From: a virus
Taxonomy: Duplodnaviria; Caudoviricetes
Length of the DNA stretch: 55,042 bases
Virus record (IMG/VR): IMGVR_UViG_3300017991_000133
Coordinates: 1-55,042 of that record
Reading direction: 5' to 3' (one strand)
The position numbers and the translations under genes are program-made. The notes beneath the pieces are model-generated. The model saw nothing but the letters and a program-made list of their open reading frames with translations. It searched no databases and was not told the origin of the DNA. This document shows, piece by piece, positions 4,777 through 15,364 of the stretch; position 1 is the stretch's first letter, and the number at the start of each line of letters is the position of its first letter.

Positions 4777-5129
4777 TGCTGAGCCTCTACCTCGTCAAGA
4801 TACTCGTCTATCCTTGCCATAAGCTTTTTCGCTTTTTTCTCGTCCTTTTTGTCCCAGCCTGCGAGCGGGCTCAGGTCGGCAGCGGTCCCCAGGATCCTGG
4901 TGAACACAACCATGCAGCCCAGCCTGACCGGGCCGGTTTTTTTATGAAACTTGTGCAGCGGGCAGCCCCGGCAGCCTCTGTCTGCATACTTTATGCAAAA
5001 TGGGCAAGCGGTGCTTGGCCATGAGTTGGGTGTCGGTTTGGGGTTGAACCGCCTGCGGATCCAGGACCAGTCCTCTGCGCTTATGCTTATGAGCTTGCCG
5101 TCGATGCGTGTTCTAATCCTTTTCGCCAT
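4773..5129 (-). CDS. Cys-rich hypothetical protein
   Basis: CPFC...CRGCPL...C motif. Confidence 0.6.
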   Translation of the reverse strand: MAKRIRTRIDGKLISISAEDWSWIRRRFNPKPTPNSWPSTACPFCIKYADRGCRGCPLHKFHKKTGPVRLGCMVVFTRILGTAADLSPLAGWDKKDEKKAKKLMARIDEYLDEVEAQQ

Positions 5130-5745
5130 CTTTTTCTCCCATGATCCGCTCCCACCATGCCTGGCCGTAATTGACTCGGTGGTAGGGCGTGGGCCCGCGG
5201 AGGCGAAGCTGCTTGTACATAACGGGGTCAGGGCTGCCGTGGTTCGTCTCGAGATTGTATCCCGGGTAGAATGCCCCAAATCCTCCAAACAGAGCGTCCA
5301 CATAAATCTTAGCCACGATGCTCGCTGCGGCCACCTCGTAGATTCCCTTGTCGGCCTTTGTCTTGCAGGTCACAGGGATCCCGATCTTGCGGCGCATAAG
5401 ATTGAGAGCGGCCGCTGAGAAGTAGCCGTCAAGCAGAACGCTGGCCTTGTCTGTGCTTATTTGCATTGCGTAGAGCTTGTCGAGCAGCTGGCGCACGGCT
5501 GCTATCATGGCGTTGTTTCTGGCCAGGTGCACGCCTATATGGCTTATGTCCTGGACGGTTGCCAGGGTGACGGAGTAGATGTTGTGCTTTTGGAGCTCCG
5601 GCCAGACCTCGAGGCGCTGGGCTGGGCTCAGGAGCTTGCTGTCTCGCACGCCGGGCACTCTTTTGTTGGTGGGCGTTAACGCGCATACCACACAGTCGCC
5701 GGCAATGCTGGGGCTGAAGTTCACCTCATCGACTCCTATTATCAT
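5113..5745 (-). CDS. rnhB: Ribonuclease HII
   Basis: 'IIGVDEV', 'GVRDSKLLS', 'LLDG', 'KAD...VAAASIVAK', 'HR' motifs. Confidence 0.88.
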   Translation of the reverse strand: MIIGVDEVNFSPSIAGDCVVCALTPTNKRVPGVRDSKLLSPAQRLEVWPELQKHNIYSVTLATVQDISHIGVHLARNNAMIAAVRQLLDKLYAMQISTDKASVLLDGYFSAAALNLMRRKIGIPVTCKTKADKGIYEVAAASIVAKIYVDALFGGFGAFYPGYNLETNHGSPDPVMYKQLRLRGPTPYHRVNYGQAWWERIMGEKDGEKD

Positions 5746-10883: not shown

Positions 10884-11116
10884 GTGTTTTATAAAAGTTT
10901 TTGGACTCCAGGGCCTGGCGGGATCCTGGCGCCGGCGATTCCGGGTGCATTGCTGGCCGGTCGCGCCGGCCGCGGGTGGGTCCCGGGACGCTTCTTCCCT
11001 GGGGGGGCTCCTGGCCAAAAGAGGACCGGCCTTTTTGGAAAGATGGGAAAAAAGGCCAAAAGTGCCCAAATACTGTGCAAAATCCCAACTTTTTTTCAAG
11101 TTTTTTTGAAAAAGAC

Positions 11117-11145
11117 TTGACATTCGCCATGGCAAACGCTATATT
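11117..11145 (+). promoter_or_regulatory. Rightward sigma70 promoter driving the ribozyme-punctuated operon
   Basis: TTGACA-17 nt-TATATT with upstream A/T tracts (UP-like); spacer contains CGCCATGGCA. Confidence 0.88.
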
Positions 11146-11227
11146 ATTAATAGGATGAAAAAGAAAAAGGGCGACAGAGAGACGGTCAGCGGATGTCAAG
11201 GCCAGTTAGGTCAAGTCCTTTTCCTTG

Positions 11228-11239
11228 GCTCTTTGAAAA
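11228..11239 (+). promoter_or_regulatory. boxA-like antitermination site
   Basis: GCTCTTTGAAAA, ~80 nt downstream of the promoter, resembles rrn/lambdoid boxA. Confidence 0.6.
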
Positions 11240-11253
11240 AAGAAAGCTGAATA

Positions 11254-11378
11254 GGCTGCCTGGGGTGACTGCCCCAGCGCTCCTCGGCCGGCGAACCGGG
11301 CGGTAGCTGACGCGAGTCAGCGAGAATCGGATGGCTGCCCGAGGGTGCCAGCGCTGCGGCGGGTGTTCCCGGGGGCTC
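11254..11378 (+). ncRNA. Structured leader RNA of unknown function (branched rod)
   Basis: Nested pairings CAGCGCT/AGCGCTG and CCTCGG/CCGAGG; hairpins CCGG-CGAA-CCGG and GCTGAC-GCGA-GTCAGC. Confidence 0.5.
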
Positions 11379-11409
11379 GAAAAGCAGAATCAAAAACCTC
11401 CCTCCCAAA

Positions 11410-11479
11410 TTCGAAAGCGGGGAGGGCTTCTTCCCGCTCCCTCCGGTGCTAGCCGGCCGGGGGCTGAAGAGATAGGCTT
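11410..11479 (+). ncRNA. Type II hammerhead ribozyme 1 (predicted cut after C11439)
   Basis: GAAA 11413-16; stem III GCGGGGAG/CTTCCCGC; CUC triplet; stem I CCTCCGG/CCGGGGG; CUGAAGA 11464-70; stem II only 2 bp; loop AGCC pairs with tail GGCT. Confidence 0.8.
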
Positions 11480-11501
11480 AATTTTTTTTGGGAGGTTTTC
11501 T

Positions 11502-11744
11502 GTGAAATACACAATCGAAAAACTGGAGCTTGTGGATCCCGAGCGGAACCACTGCAAATTTTACGAGCTCGAGTATGACGCGTTCGATAAGAGCGCTGTC
11601 GTGGTCACCCGCCGCTGGGGCCGCATCGGCACCACCGGCCAGGTCCGAAAGGATACGTTCCCTACCAGCGTCGAGGGCTATGCCTTCTTCAACGAAATCC
11701 TTTACTCGAAGCTGCGCAAGGGCTACCGCACGGTAGATTGCTGA
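11502..11744 (+). CDS. Stand-alone WGR-domain protein
   Basis: GTG start after GGGAGG; 'NHCKFYEL...VTRRWGRIGTTGQ...KLRKGY'. Confidence 0.9.
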   Translation: MKYTIEKLELVDPERNHCKFYELEYDAFDKSAVVVTRRWGRIGTTGQVRKDTFPTSVEGYAFFNEILYSKLRKGYRTVDC

Positions 11745-11746
11745 AC

Positions 11747-11846
11747 GCCGAAACCGGGGCATCAGGGCCCGGGCATGTGGGCTTTGTCTGCATGCCGGTC
11801 CTCCCGGTCCCTCGGGTTGACATCCCGGGGCTGACGAGGCTGTCAG
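11747..11846 (+). ncRNA. Type II hammerhead ribozyme 2 (cut after C11809), extended stem III
   Basis: GCC-GAAA; stem III CCGGGG/TCCCGG with a long internal hairpin; GUC; stem I CCTCGGG/CCCGGGG; CUGACGA; GGC; loop TGACA pairs with tail TGTCA. Confidence 0.92.
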
Positions 11847-11871
11847 ATTAAATCTTTTGGGAGGTTTTCAA

Positions 11872-12162
11872 ATGTCTAAACTTTCATCTTATGCAATGGG
11901 CGGCGGCCGCAAGGCTAAGCCGGTTACGGATCCGTCCAAGTTCTCGCGTCATTTCAATCTGGACGATGTCGAGGGCATCATCGGGTTGATGGATGCCAAC
12001 GTTCTGGTGGCTGCGGCTGCCGGTCAGATCGACCTCAACGAGGTCGCTTCCTGGGAGTTGGCCAATCGCGGGATGAACCGCATGGGCGAATGGGTAGGCT
12101 TCGACGAGGCCAAGAGGCGCCATGAGGCGCGCGCCGTCACGCACGGCTGGCCTAAGAGGTAG
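11872..12162 (+). CDS. Small hypothetical early protein
   Basis: ATG after U-tract and GGGAGG; 'ELANRGMNRMGEWVGFDEAK'. Confidence 0.85.
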   Translation: MSKLSSYAMGGGRKAKPVTDPSKFSRHFNLDDVEGIIGLMDANVLVAAAAGQIDLNEVASWELANRGMNRMGEWVGFDEAKRRHEARAVTHGWPKR

Positions 12163-12230
12163 CCGAAACGGAGGGCTCCCCGATCCTCCGTCCCTCCGGG
12201 GTGACTTCCCGGAGGCTGATGAGGCAAGTC
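12162..12230 (+). ncRNA. Type II hammerhead ribozyme 3 (cut after C12192)
   Basis: GCC-GAAA; stem III CGGAGGG/TCCTCCG; GUC; stem I CCTCCGGG/CCCGGAGG; CUGAUGA; GGC; loop GACTT pairs with tail AAGTC. Confidence 0.95.
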
Positions 12231-12253
12231 GAAAAATTTTGGGAGGTTCAAAA

Positions 12254-12571
12254 ATGTTTGAGAAAGACTGTGATTATGAGGTCATGAAAGACGGCGCCAG
12301 CCTGGTCGCTTCGGTGGCCATGGGATCCGGCATCGGCACTTCCTGGAGGCAGAAATCCTTTAAGCTTCCTAAGGGCGCGCTTATCCACTACGAGGGCCGC
12401 GGGAAGGCCATTTTTTCCGGCAGTGTCGAGATGGAATTCTTTTCCATCGTGACCTCGGGATTTGGCGCAGACGCCGGTTCGGACATGAGCGGAGTTGTTT
12501 ACTTCAAAGGCTATTTCGAGCCTAATTCCTGGGGCTGCGTGCCTGCTGGGTATCTCCGCAAGGTCGACTAA
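12254..12571 (+). CDS. Small hypothetical early protein
   Basis: ATG after GGGAGG; MFEKDCDYEV...GYLRKVD. Confidence 0.85.
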   Translation: MFEKDCDYEVMKDGASLVASVAMGSGIGTSWRQKSFKLPKGALIHYEGRGKAIFSGSVEMEFFSIVTSGFGADAGSDMSGVVYFKGYFEPNSWGCVPAGYLRKVD

Positions 12572-12635
12572 TCGAAACGGGGGCTTGGGGCCCTCGTCGC
12601 CGGGAGGTGACCGTCCCGGCCTGAAGAGATAGGTC
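12571..12635 (+). ncRNA. Type II hammerhead ribozyme 4 (cut after C12598)
   Basis: ATC-GAAA; stem III CGGGGGC/GCCCTCG; GUC; stem I GCCGGGA/TCCCGGC; CUGAAGA; GAT; loop GACC pairs with tail GGTC. Confidence 0.95.
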
Positions 12636-12661
12636 GAAATTAATTTGGGAGGTTTTCTAAA

Positions 12662-13057
12662 ATGGCTAAGAAAAAAGAACAGTGGGCAATCGATTATGAG
12701 GTCCGGGTCGCGGCCATCCGGCGGGCGATTAATGTGGACGGCCACAAGTTCTATCTTGACACCTATTTGGGCCGCAAGCTGGTCCTGGCCATTGACGCGG
12801 ATGGCAGCACTGCTGTTTCCGGCCTTGGCACCTGGAGCCAGCACTCCTGGGCGATCTGCTCCACTCAGGTTTATCCCTGGGCAGAGGAGATTGGGATCCC
12901 TCAGGACAAGCACTTCAAGTTCGAAGTGTTCTCAACTCACCGCAGCGAGCAGGCCGCCGAGAAGCGGGCGCTCATGGAGCTCGATGTCAAGTCTTTTGTC
13001 GATTACCGGATCGTCAACCAGCCCAATGGGCTTTCTGTCCTATGGGTTGCTAGATGA
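12662..13057 (+). CDS. Hypothetical early protein
   Basis: ATG after GGGAGG; 131 aa. Confidence 0.85.
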   Translation: MAKKKEQWAIDYEVRVAAIRRAINVDGHKFYLDTYLGRKLVLAIDADGSTAVSGLGTWSQHSWAICSTQVYPWAEEIGIPQDKHFKFEVFSTHRSEQAAEKRALMELDVKSFVDYRIVNQPNGLSVLWVAR

Positions 13058-13059
13058 CA

Positions 13060-13123
13060 GCCGAAACGGGGCGCCGCCCCGTCCTCCCGGGAGTGACCGT
13101 CCGGGAGCTGAAGAGGCAGGTCA
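13060..13123 (+). ncRNA. Type II hammerhead ribozyme 5 (cut after C13083)
   Basis: GCC-GAAA; stem III CGGGGC/GCCCCG; GUC; stem I CTCCCGGG/TCCGGGAG; CUGAAGA; GGC; loop TGACC pairs with tail GGTCA. Confidence 0.95.
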
Positions 13124-13149
13124 AATTATTTTCTTTGGGAGGTGTTTTT

Positions 13150-13410
13150 ATGAGTAAGGAAAAACTCGTTTCTATTCCAGCCGGGTTTAAGTGCCCGGCC
13201 GTTGCTAACTTGCCGGCGGATCCGGCGCTCGAGAGTATGGAGTGCTCGGTGTTCGGTCAGACAAACTGGTTCTGCCCCTACGCTGCTTTTCCGTGCTTAG
13301 AGGAGCGCCGGCTGAGCGCTGACTGTCCGTATGCTCCTGCTGAAATCTGGCGCCACTTCCGGAATTTCCGCGAGCGCGTAGAGCTCGAGGCGCTGGAGGG
13401 AAAGGGATGA
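13150..13410 (+). CDS. Small Cys-rich hypothetical early protein
   Basis: ATG after GGGAGG; five Cys. Confidence 0.8.
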   Translation: MSKEKLVSIPAGFKCPAVANLPADPALESMECSVFGQTNWFCPYAAFPCLEERRLSADCPYAPAEIWRHFRNFRERVELEALEGKG

Positions 13411-13631
13411 CAAAAATCAAGGAATATTTAAACACTCCTGTTTTTGTTTTTCTCTATGAAGATGCTATTCCGGAGGTCATTCTCTGGATGGTGTTTTACA
13501 ATGGCATCGTCGATGCCGTGGAGCTGCTGGCGGCATGGCTCGGGGATGCGTCCGAGACTTATCTTCGCGGCTTAACGGTTACCGTCGTCGACGCCGATGA
13601 GCTGCCGGGCGATCCCTTTGAGTGGATGTGA
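13407..13631 (+). CDS. Small acidic hypothetical protein
   Basis: ATGA-coupled to the previous gene. Confidence 0.75.
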   Translation: MTKIKEYLNTPVFVFLYEDAIPEVILWMVFYNGIVDAVELLAAWLGDASETYLRGLTVTVVDADELPGDPFEWM

Positions 13632-13696
13632 TCGAAACGGGCCCTTGCGGGCTCGTCGCTCCGGGTTGATCACCGGGGCCTGATGAGATTGATCAA
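13631..13696 (+). ncRNA. Type II hammerhead ribozyme 6 (cut after C13657)
   Basis: ATC-GAAA; stem III CGGGCCC/GGGCTCG; GUC; stem I GCTCCGG/CCGGGGC; CUGAUGA; GAT; loop TTGATCA pairs with tail TGATCAA. Confidence 0.95.
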
Positions 13697-13718
13697 ATTT
13701 TTTATGGGAGGTATCGTT

Positions 13719-13955
13719 ATGGACCGTTTAAGTGGACAGAAAAATTTCCACTACGGGCTGGACTTCGTACTCAGTCACCGCGCCGAAGATGTGGCAGAGG
13801 CCATCGATATGCTGGCCAGCCGCAATCGCTTTGAGAAGGTCAAGCGGGTCGTTATTCGGCCTGAGGAGAAGCCCGCTCTGCGACGGCAGCTCGAGGAGCG
13901 CATGAAGGTGCGCCGCCGCAAGGCTGAGCGCCGCCGCGGGGAGTACCGGAAATGA
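13719..13955 (+). CDS. Small basic hypothetical protein
   Basis: ATG after GGGAGG. Confidence 0.8.
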   Translation: MDRLSGQKNFHYGLDFVLSHRAEDVAEAIDMLASRNRFEKVKRVVIRPEEKPALRRQLEERMKVRRRKAERRRGEYRK

Positions 13956-14182
13956 CCTTACAGGCACTTTTGGTAATAGGGCTGCTGCTCTGGTGCTTTG
14001 CGCTGACCGTGCTGCTTATGCGCGAGATGCGCCGCTGCGACCGGATGCGGCACAAGCTGCTTGAGATCCTCCGCGAAATGACGGCGGATTCTCACCAGCA
14101 GGATCTGTTCCCCCAGGCTTATCGTGATGCGGTTTCGCATTACTCTCTGGCCATAGAAGGAGTTGTCAATGAAAGTGATTAG
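13952..14182 (+). CDS. Small membrane-anchored hypothetical protein
   Basis: N-terminal TM; ATGA coupling. Confidence 0.7.
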   Translation: MTLQALLVIGLLLWCFALTVLLMREMRRCDRMRHKLLEILREMTADSHQQDLFPQAYRDAVSHYSLAIEGVVNESD

Positions 14183-14405
14183 CGAGATTAAGCTGCCAGG
14201 TGATATCGAGGTCAAAAAGGTTCCGTCCGACCAGATCCGCGTAGAGATCACCATGGAGTGCACGGACATCTATTTCCGCGAGCTGGATGCATCGATCCAG
14301 GAGGCGGTGGGAAGGTCGTTCCAGGAGCTGCTGCAGAGCGCTGTTATGCGACAGGTGGAAAAGGTAGAGGAGAATTACCTGGAGCGGATTCGGGCGAAAT
14401 CTTAG
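14169..14405 (+). CDS. Small hypothetical protein
   Basis: ATG after AGGAG; overlaps the previous stop. Confidence 0.75.
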   Translation: MKVISEIKLPGDIEVKKVPSDQIRVEITMECTDIYFRELDASIQEAVGRSFQELLQSAVMRQVEKVEENYLERIRAKS

Positions 14406-14507
14406 CCGAATCGGGACCATTCCCCGGAGGTCCCGATGGTGCGGCGATGGCTGACCGCGCCCTGATGATCGCGAGAGCGAGTGCGCCGAGAGGTGCACGG
14501 CAGGCCA
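14405..14507 (+). ncRNA. Variant type II hammerhead ribozyme 7 (U15.1-A16.1 swap, two inserted GAGA hairpins; predicted cut after U14437)
   Basis: GCC-GAAU; stem III CGGGACC/GGTCCCG; GAU; stem I GGTGCGG/CCGCGCC; CUGAUGA; TCGC-GAGA-GCGA; GTGCGCC-GAGA-GGTGCAC; GGC; loop TGGCT pairs with tail GGCCA. Confidence 0.75.
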
Positions 14508-14529
14508 AAATTCAACGGGAGGTATCGTT

Positions 14530-14859
14530 ATGAAAATTTATTTCGGTGTTGGCTCGGGTCCCGGCCCGAGGCTGATCGAGGTCCTGGGAAGCCGGGACGG
14601 TGCGGGCAGAGAGGCTCGGCCCTATCCGCTGCGCCATTTCGTCCGGCACAGTCCGGATGGCTTTCAGTGGGGATATGCAGGGAGCGGGCCCGCGGATGCG
14701 GCGCGCTGTATTTTGATCGATTGCGTAGGAGTCGATCTGGCGGATCGTTTTTACCAGCGATTCAAGCAGGACTTCATCGCTCCTGCCGGCGACCGGCTGT
14801 ATATCACGGAGGCGGAGATCCGCGAATGGCTGGAGGATCAGGCTGGGTACTATGGATAA
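14530..14859 (+). CDS. DUF6166-like protein
   Basis: 'RHSPDGFQWGYAGSGPADAARCIL...YQRFKQDFIA' signature. Confidence 0.75.
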   Translation: MKIYFGVGSGPGPRLIEVLGSRDGAGREARPYPLRHFVRHSPDGFQWGYAGSGPADAARCILIDCVGVDLADRFYQRFKQDFIAPAGDRLYITEAEIREWLEDQAGYYG

Positions 14860-15103
14860 GTTCGAGTCGCAGGAGGTCGGGTTTCAGCTTGCTGCGGAGG
14901 CCGGCGTTCCGGTCCGCGGCATCGTCGATGGTGTAAGGTACATTTTCTTTCCTTCTGGCCATCGCAAGGAGGTCAGAGCAGGAGGCATGAAACGCTCGCC
15001 CACGGCGCCGCTCGATGCGGATACGAAAGTCGTGAGGTGCCCGGCGTGTCGCTTCACAGTATTCCGGGATGGCTGCTGCAGCTACTGTGGAGAGAAATTT
15101 TAG
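14852..15103 (+). CDS. Small zinc-ribbon protein
   Basis: C-terminal CPAC...CSYCG. Confidence 0.7.
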   Translation: MDKFESQEVGFQLAAEAGVPVRGIVDGVRYIFFPSGHRKEVRAGGMKRSPTAPLDADTKVVRCPACRFTVFRDGCCSYCGEKF

Positions 15104-15119
15104 CCTCCCAAATCTTTTA

Positions 15120-15156
15120 GGCCCAGGGGCCGGTTGGTTCCTGGGCCTTTTTTTTT
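15120..15156 (+). terminator. Intrinsic terminator ending the + strand operon
   Basis: GGCCCAGG/CCTGGGCC hairpin followed by T9. Confidence 0.85.
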
Positions 15157-15364
15157 GGCCAAAAATATCGGCGCACAGGCGGCTTCTGGTCGCCTCGTTT
15201 CGTAAAAAGCCGTATTTCAGGATGAAAGCGCAGGATAAATAGTGCAAAAAGCCCTAATATTGCACAAGCTATTGAAATTGTGCTGTTTAGGCCGGAATAA
15301 AAACGCTCTGAGAGGCGCTACGGCGGGCGTTCTCTTGTCGATGCTTATATCCGGTCGCTCAAAA

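Follow-up and report, generated by a model that had tools for sequence, protein, structure and literature searches.

Seven type II hammerhead ribozymes between stop codons and uniform ribosome sites in a phage operon of small genes

What do hammerhead ribozymes do when a phage sets them, one after another, among the small genes of a single operon? The question is raised by the complete IMG/VR virus record IMGVR_UViG_3300017991_000133, whose 55,042 bp are referred to here as the window, and in which seven type II hammerheads lie within 3.1 kb, accompanied by 11 small open reading frames (ORFs) between one promoter-like site and one terminator. An initial annotation, made from the sequence, had described a fixed order at the junctions of this array, in which a stop codon runs into the ribozyme and is followed by an A/U-rich tract, a ribosome site and the next start codon. 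We consider it likely that the ribozymes cut up a polycistronic mRNA, giving units that have a standard leader and ends capped by hairpins. Here we first describe the ribozymes and their junctions, then the model that they suggest for the transcript, and finally a survey of other viral loci against which this model and its rivals can be weighed.

The hammerheads and their junctions

The seven copies, numbered HH1 to HH7, were scored against the Rfam model for hammerhead ribozymes of type II (RF02276; gathering score, 37 bits) and are as follows.

11409–11481, plus strand: HH1, in the leader; core GAAA ... CUGAAGA, 2-bp stem II, triplet CUC, 4-bp pseudoknot; 30 bits; predicted cut after 11439
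11746–11848, plus strand: HH2, with a 42-nt loop in stem III; 31 bits; predicted cut after 11809
12161–12234, plus strand: HH3; 42.0 bits; predicted cut after 12192
12570–12638, plus strand: HH4; 44.9 bits; predicted cut after 12598
13059–13125, plus strand: HH5; 48.5 bits; predicted cut after 13083
13630–13697, plus strand: HH6, with a 7-bp pseudoknot; 45.6 bits; predicted cut after 13657
14404–14507, plus strand: HH7, aberrant, with GAAU (U15.1–A16.1) and triplet GAU; 26.9 bits; cut after 14437 if active

HH3 to HH6 exceed the gathering score (42.0–48.5 bits), and in core, topology and pseudoknot the copies agree with the Rfam family; HH1, with its 2-bp stem II, and HH2, with its 42-nt loop III, score below the cut-off, and HH7 differs in having GAAU, an A at 16.1 and a 30-nt insert beside the core. 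Both core elements (CUGANGA ... GAAA) are present in six of the seven copies, and the same six have a cleavage triplet of the form NUH together with A15.1–U16.1, the triplet being GUC in five and CUC in one. When helix pairs were counted by a structure-anchored parse of the copies, HH1 to HH6 were found to have a stem I of 7–9 bp, a stem III of 7–10 bp and a stem II of 2–3 bp; loops close the first two of these helices, and stem II is the open one. A pseudoknot of 4–7 bp between loop I and the 3' tail is found in all seven copies and is formed by six different sequence pairs, among them AGCC/GGCU, UUGACA/UGUCAG, UGACU/AGUCG, UGACC/GGUCG and UUGAUCA/UGAUCAA. Compensatory pair changes between the copies occur in stems I, II and III as well as in the pseudoknot, stem II for example being GGC/GCC or GAU/AUC.

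HH7 fails the NUH rule (GAU, with U15.1–A16.1), and carries a U at position 17. Its insert (14469–14498), two hairpins that both have a GAGA loop, separates CUGAUGA from GGC, the stem II strand. In the minimum free energy (MFE) fold of HH7 the GCC/GGC pairing closes a five-way junction, and apart from the insert this copy is folded like the others. A natural hammerhead variant with U15.1–A16.1 is described in the text of Perreault et al. 2011 (PMC3088659) as self-cleaving less efficiently, and cleavage by HH7 is probably slow or absent. The copy could be slow, regulated or dead; the first ribozyme of a distant relative discussed below has one extra U at the place of the insert.

Three copies below the Rfam cut-off and the variant core of HH7 are what would speak for regarding the motifs as decayed or chance look-alikes without activity. 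Such a view would have to accommodate seven co-oriented copies lying exactly in intergenic gaps, helices that covary, and a detector which in our survey gave one match in reversed sequence against 226 in real sequence, and we find it scarcely credible. As far as sequence can tell, the seven type II hammerheads are a real, large and very regular array.

The regularity extends to the junctions, where the initial annotation had the upstream stop codon supply the first base of stem II in four copies. This is borne out at TAG 12160–12162, TAA 12569–12571, TGA 13629–13631 and TAG 14403–14405, where the last base of the stop is the first base of the three-nucleotide stem II strand before GAAA or GAAU (G of GCC in HH3 and HH7, A of AUC in HH4 and HH6). 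Two further stops lie 2 nt before the stem II strand, again as described (TGA 11742–11744 at HH2 and TGA 13055–13057 at HH5), so that the stop has the same upstream-frame phase relative to GAAA in six of six copies. HH1 has no ORF upstream and fell outside the original observation, which started at 11742. The motifs, their covariation, their placing with respect to stop and start codons, and the signals of the operon listed below are direct observations.

Downstream of each of the seven copies come an A/U tract, GGGAGG and a start codon, as the initial annotation had claimed; the tract is 8–14 nt long and about 80–100% A/U, and 6–9 nt lead on to GTG or ATG. The GGGAGG motifs are at 11490, 11859, 12241, 12647, 13137, 13706 and 14517. 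To speak of a standardised ribosome site is also justified, since the Shine–Dalgarno (SD) sequence is (U/C)GGGAGGU throughout the array, unlike the rest of the phage, whose genes mostly have AGGAGG or AAGGAG. GGGAGGT occurs 16 times in the window against an expected 6.4 +/- 2.7, a number reached in none of 100 shuffles, and nine of the 16 fall within 11396–14523; plain GGGAGG is not enriched across the window (45 observed, 43.6 expected).

A model for the operon transcript

Most genes of the window are on the minus strand. The array is a plus-strand unit between a divergent helix-turn-helix (HTH) gene and convergent tail-side genes, and its operon signals are one strong promoter-like site and one strong terminator. 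Its features, other than the ribozymes, are these.

10834–10616, minus strand: HTH gene, with an HTH_31 match
10883–10855, minus strand: divergent, mirror-image promoter-like site of the HTH gene (11/12 matches)
11117–11145, plus strand: promoter-like site TTGACA-17-TATATT of the array operon (11/12 matches)
11146–11439, plus strand: untranslated leader up to the HH1 cut, containing CCUCCCUCCC at 11397–11406
11502–11744, plus strand: g1, 80 aa, GTG start, WGR domain (PF05406, E 4.3e-17)
11872–12162, plus strand: g2, 96 aa, phrog_22970 (no assigned function)
12254–12571, plus strand: g3, 105 aa, no family match
12662–13057, plus strand: g4, 131 aa, no family match
13150–13631, plus strand: g5 (86 aa) and g5b (74 aa), ATGA overlap, no ribozyme between them
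13719–14405, plus strand: g6 (78 aa), g6b (76 aa) and g6c (78 aa), overlapping, no ribozyme between them
14530–15103, plus strand: g7 (109 aa, DUF6166) and g7b (83 aa)
15119–15158, plus strand: intrinsic-terminator-like hairpin (13 pairs) followed by T8, the operon end, convergent with the tail-side genes

Four of the 11 ORFs (g5b, g6b, g6c and g7b) have no ribozyme in front of them and each overlaps the preceding gene, so that the seven ribozymes delimit units of one to three genes. In the model that we favour, a promoter at about 11117 would drive a transcript of about 4 kb, ending at about 15158 and carrying the eleven small accessory genes. The ribozymes, six of them canonical, would cut this transcript into a leader of about 290 nt and mRNAs of about 370, 383, 406, 485, 574, 780 and 720 nt, sizes deduced from the coordinates, each mRNA with one to three genes. 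Because stem II is the open helix, each cut would leave two capped ends. The upstream mRNA would have its 3' end, a 2',3'-cyclic phosphate, in the GC-rich hairpin of stem III, 26–32 nt past the stop codon (65 nt at HH2), and the downstream mRNA would start with a 5'-OH on the first paired base of stem I and continue through the rest of the ribozyme and an A/U spacer to UGGGAGGU and the start codon.

With the type II topology, the predicted cut in each of the seven copies immediately precedes the base at which the pairing of stem I begins, which agrees with the structural premise of the initial annotation that the 3' product would begin with a 5'-OH on the stem I hairpin. The leaders after the predicted cuts are 62, 62, 61, 63, 66, 61 and 92 nt long from HH1 to HH7, and the predicted hairpin energies are −11.5 to −16.9 kcal/mol for stem I and −11.4 to −15.1 kcal/mol for stem III, with −34.4 kcal/mol at HH2. 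With capped ends and a fixed leader, every unit would receive much the same 61–66 nt leader and hairpin-capped ends whatever its neighbours. The initial annotation had looked to a 5'-OH placed directly on the stem I hairpin for resistance to decay that depends on a 5'-monophosphate. In Bacillota, however, the 5'-OH product of the glmS ribozyme is degraded by RNase J1, so it is the terminal hairpin and not the 5'-OH that would provide any protection, which would also depend on the host. That the RNA is cleaved in vivo, that its ends are protected and that translation is insulated are what we infer for this operon.

Two parts of the transcript have features of their own. The stem III loop of HH2 (11757–11800, 42 nt) is structured, with the hairpin at −34.4 kcal/mol, and would give the g1 mRNA a tail of 65 nt instead of 26–32 nt. 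The leader (11146–11439, about 290 nt) has no plausible ORF and no Rfam match, and HH1 would free it as a separate hairpin-ended RNA.

HH1 may have a further role at the first unit. In the MFE fold, leader bases 11390–11402, which include AAAACCUCCC, form a helix with the SD and start region of g1 at 11490–11505, and this helix encloses HH1; the predicted probability that the g1 SD is unpaired goes from 0.01 in the uncleaved RNA to 0.49 in the cleaved one. A closure of ACCUCC with GGAGGU is also found at the first ribozymes of four arrays that belong to one family (L122, L247, L220 and L239), and among the surveyed copies an anti-SD of at least 5 nt accompanies eight of 56 without an abutting ORF, compared with five of 124 internal ones. 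The distant relative has no anti-SD closure at its first ribozyme, nor do most of the other arrays examined. Cleavage by HH1 would separate the anti-SD from the SD and start of g1, and this may be taken as a lead.

A different fate for the products would be a reversal of the hammerhead reaction, by which the excised units are ligated to give circular or spliced RNAs; each internal fragment would be equipped for it with a 5'-OH, a 2',3'-cyclic phosphate and two ribozyme halves. The stem II strands from HH1 to HH7 are GA, GGC, GGC, GAU, GGC, GAU and GGC, and the pseudoknot sequence differs in most copies; neighbouring ribozymes would mostly be unable to cross-pair, and only the fragment from HH2 to HH3 could re-form stem II. 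Such products were sought by Perreault et al. 2011 (PMC3088659), whose text states, with data not shown, that none was found, and we judge ligation to be very improbable.

As to the cargo, g1 (WGR, PF05406) and g7 (DUF6166) are the only two of the 11 ORFs with a Pfam match over the cut-off; an Atlas search with g4 returned no usable match, and a literature search on DUF6166 found no paper. The GC content of the cargo and its GC content at third codon positions (GC3) resemble those of the remaining phage genes and give no sign that it is foreign. Elsewhere in the window, a weak Rfam suhB/mmgR match at 15077–15163 (28.2 bits, cut-off 41) coincides with the terminator hairpin of the operon and is probably just that terminator. 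Upstream of the array region are an RNase HII gene (5113–5745, minus strand) and a gene for a superinfection-immunity domain protein (PF14373; 8372–8872, minus strand), the latter suggesting a temperate lifestyle.

Other viral loci and the exchange of cargo

How far the order of the junctions is general was examined in two samples of IMG/VR loci (119, and 118 of which 111 were new), drawn by patterns that contain neither a stop codon nor a ribosome site. With a detector that requires the core plus pairing, 226 type II hammerheads were found in 157 of the 230 loci, and one in the reversed-sequence control. In eight array loci the detector reported 39 copies and Rfam 26 over its gathering score; the detector also misses copies, finding one in L172 where Rfam finds six. 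For 34 of the 226 copies there was no upstream ORF that has 50 codons or more and ends at most 90 nt away; these were set aside, and for the remaining 192 the distance from the stop codon to GAAA was distributed as follows.

2 nt (the stop overlaps a 3-bp stem II): 54 copies
3 nt: 41 copies
4 nt: 20 copies
5–7 nt: 39 copies
More than 7 nt: 38 copies

The stop thus lies within 7 nt of GAAA in 154 of the 192 hammerheads with an upstream ORF; in ordinary gene pairs of the same loci, 64 of 218 stops are 7 nt or less from the next SD. The pattern used to draw the second sample fixes CC before GAAA; the first, unbiased sample has 16, 7, 2, 21 and 14 copies in the same five distance classes and 13 without an ORF (n=73), and counting one copy per locus gives 31, 28, 17, 32 and 23, with 26 lacking an ORF (n=157). 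Downstream, an SD and a start codon follow 180 of the 226 copies, the start being a median of 29 nt after the core (interquartile range 25–36). A stop at or next to stem II and a fixed spacing to the start are therefore common among phage type II hammerheads. Other arrays also have a uniform ribosome site of their own (AGGAGGUGGG in L244, GGAGGUGC in L201 and GGGAGGUAGU in L383). Arrays of six to eight type II hammerheads, each with its own uniform ribosome site, are present on five viral or metagenome contigs (L204, L239, L244, L172 and L383). A strict codon periodicity of the stop was tried as a general rule and rejected: among copies at 7 nt or less, 71 are at 2 or 5 nt, 53 at 3 or 6 nt and 30 at 4 or 7 nt.

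The closeness of stop and ribozyme invites the idea that translation gates cleavage: stem II, GAAA and stem III would be unfolded by a ribosome that terminates on the fused stop, and cutting would then depend on, or report, the translation of the upstream gene. The initial annotation had noted that a terminating ribosome would cover stem II and GAAA, and the geometry is right, in that these two and the beginning of stem III would all lie beneath a ribosome positioned at the stop codon. In all six internal copies of the window the stop overlaps stem II or abuts it, and the 154 of 192 surveyed copies at 7 nt or less from GAAA are placed more tightly than ordinary stops relative to the next SD. 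Compaction and the 5' consensus of the ribozyme nevertheless explain much of this. Where the distance is 2 nt the stop is TAG in 50 of 54 copies, and 27 of the 34 copies lacking an upstream ORF have an A just before stem II, so that the 5' end of the ribozyme already provides two thirds of UAG and a U alone completes it. Moreover, 38 of the 192 copies, two from the distant relative among them, are more than 7 nt from the stop. We think gating by translation improbable. The conserved A at the first position of RF02276 coincides with the middle base of UAG where the stop overlaps stem II, or with the last base of UAA or UGA where it abuts.

No close relative with which the order of cargo could be compared was found. 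A blastn search with 11100–15200 gave no match among INPHARED phages, and neither the nine pattern stretches reached in IMG/VR through the neighbouring 454-aa protein nor the 386 reached in metagenome contigs through g1 could be confirmed. A pattern tied to the ribosome site gave two chance matches only in IMG/VR and 40 loci in metagenomes, three of the latter with real hammerheads and none with the cargo of the window; a loose pattern scan of genome contigs gave 120 loci with no real hammerhead and one spurious match. Among ten viral records with DUF6166 relatives none had an RF02276 match at E <= 0.01, a search in which the controls gave no match either.

One distant relative (G011, which holds locus L085 and is an estimated 63% complete) has tail-side proteins that are 32–43% identical and in the same order. 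At the same genomic place it has a divergent small regulator (ribbon-helix-helix-like, below the Pfam cut-off), the same promoter hexamers, a leader, three type II hammerheads, a U-rich tract with GGAGG and GUG, and a terminator. Just two cargo families, arranged as in the window, are shared: one through a g5-like C-terminus (54% over 35 aa), the other being the DUF6166 gene (50% over 80 aa). Similarity at the DNA level in this region is confined to the ribozyme modules (74–76%) and part of the DUF6166 gene.

Cargo in general is small and highly diverse. The proteins next to hammerheads have a median length of 95 aa, and 191 of them (180 next-downstream ORFs and the 11 of the window) form 11 multi-member clusters of two to three members each; the cargo of the window is unrelated to that of other arrays, except for relatives of g2, g5 and g7. 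Six related arrays (L122, L247, L371, L220, L239 and L370) show how joints and cargo can part company. In this family one cluster of modules (at least 85% identity) stands before three unrelated cargo genes, with the modules L247.2 and L239.4 being 95% identical, another module stands before two unrelated cargo genes, and one cargo family is found behind two different modules. L239 and L370 have their first and last two cassettes in common, with the middle replaced.

These mosaics, from another family than this phage, fit an exchange at the joints and support it there. The proposal of the initial annotation that the similar spacers could serve as joints for swapping cargo fares unevenly: it is supported in the six-array family and weakly so in the distant relative; the modules of the window itself are 49–78% identical and share exact stretches of only 7–16 nt. 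Carried further, it becomes the view that the modules are mainly conserved joints for recombination of accessory genes and that cleavage adds little to expression, which is compatible with processing of the transcript. Same modules before unrelated cargo, middle cassettes replaced between conserved ends, DNA similarity to the relative confined to modules and part of one gene, and hyperdiverse cargo all favour it. Yet at most 16 nt of exact identity is short for homologous exchange, the conservation of modules could simply reflect selection on the ribozyme, and compensatory changes in every helix point to selection for the fold, i.e. for activity. A role mainly as joints is possible in our view, though doubtful.

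Processing of the transcript into capped units is the explanation we retain, and several observations weigh against it. Three of the seven copies are under the Rfam cut-off (HH2, 31 bits; HH1, 30 bits; HH7, 26.9 bits), and HH7 breaks two defining features, with its U15.1–A16.1 and its insert beside the core. Two of the three ribozymes in the distant relative are 82–84 nt after the stop, so whatever function the ribozymes have does not need a fused stop. The A/U tract was rejected as a general element of the junction, as the A/T content before the SD is 0.58 after hammerheads and 0.55 at other genes (p=0.48). Predicted SD accessibility rises on cleavage in only four of the seven copies (HH1, HH3, HH4 and HH6), is unchanged in two and falls in one, the pseudoknot being outside the folding model.

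A broader proposal would combine processing with exchange. A type II hammerhead and a uniform ribosome site would together make a portable 'cassette boundary' of phage accessory arrays, one that ends the upstream message in a hairpin just after the stop, starts the next on a hairpin with a standard leader, and offers a homologous joint for recombinase-free swaps of cargo by co-infecting phages; at the first unit, cleavage would also unmask the ribosome site by cutting off the anti-SD of the leader. We put this forward as speculation that is unlikely to hold as a whole.

Comparison with known systems

Arrays of this kind have been known since Perreault et al. 2011 (PMC3088659), and the window is a large and tidy example. 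According to the text of that paper, clusters of hammerheads in prophages flank individual genes or short gene blocks that are not constant, processing of polycistronic RNA into gene-length mRNAs was proposed, and every site was seen to be cleaved in three arrays in vitro and in one array in E. coli. The window shares with these clusters the placing of several hammerheads in one phage transcription unit between small variable genes, and the type II pseudoknot; it differs in having seven copies in 3.1 kb. The words 'stop codon', 'termination codon', 'Shine', 'ribosome' and 'translation' do not occur in the text of the 2011 paper, whose supplements may show these junctions, and 'Shine-Dalgarno' and 'ribosome binding' are absent from a 2019 review (PMC6765202), a passage of which still calls for work to define the function of bacterial and phage hammerheads. 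A literature search found no statement of stop-codon or ribosome-site rules for type II hammerheads. The present analysis supplies the rules for the spacing from stop to ribozyme and from ribozyme to start, the uniform ribosome sites specific to each array, and the mosaic maps of cargo.

Array and survey together give a precise and testable layout, with a stop on or next to stem II, a cut that would leave hairpins on both new ends, a start codon some 29 nt past the core, one ribosome site repeated throughout an array, and cargo that changes while the joints persist. An experimenter can take from it the choice of constructs and the places at which RNA ends should be mapped.

Engineered hammerhead switches in which a ribosome site is masked until cleavage were reportedly built by Wieland and Hartig in 2008 and by Ogawa and Maeda in 2008. 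HH1 resembles them in that AAAACCUCCC of its leader is predicted to pair with GGGAGGUUUU of g1 and that cleavage would part the two strands; unlike them it is natural and has no ligand domain, and it is a prediction from folding.

Where cargo exchange is concerned, there is a likeness to another kind of system. Integron gene cassettes and the conserved boundary sequences of mosaic phage genomes provide short joints between variable genes. In the array, too, short conserved joints part promoterless, highly variable small genes that differ between relatives. In contrast to integron cassettes, the joint is a ribozyme with a ribosome site and there is no attC-like site, exchange being deduced from mosaic maps only; no site-specific recombinase family was found in the neighbouring ORFs scanned, and the array is not classed as integron-like.

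Synthetic ribozyme insulators (RiboJ) and engineered cleavage between cistrons are said to have been introduced by Lou et al. in 2012 and Qi et al. in 2012. The initial annotation likened the junctions to RiboJ, and in the sense of 'works like' the likeness is apt, given the uniform SD and the leader that would start on a hairpin. Self-cleavage would remove the upstream context and leave a defined 5'-hairpin leader before a standard ribosome site, as it does with RiboJ. The window ribozymes are not members of the engineered RiboJ family: they are natural, of type II, placed between cistrons and not after a promoter, and they would also cap the 3' end upstream. With its seven compatible variants, the operon would offer natural and orthogonal insulator parts.

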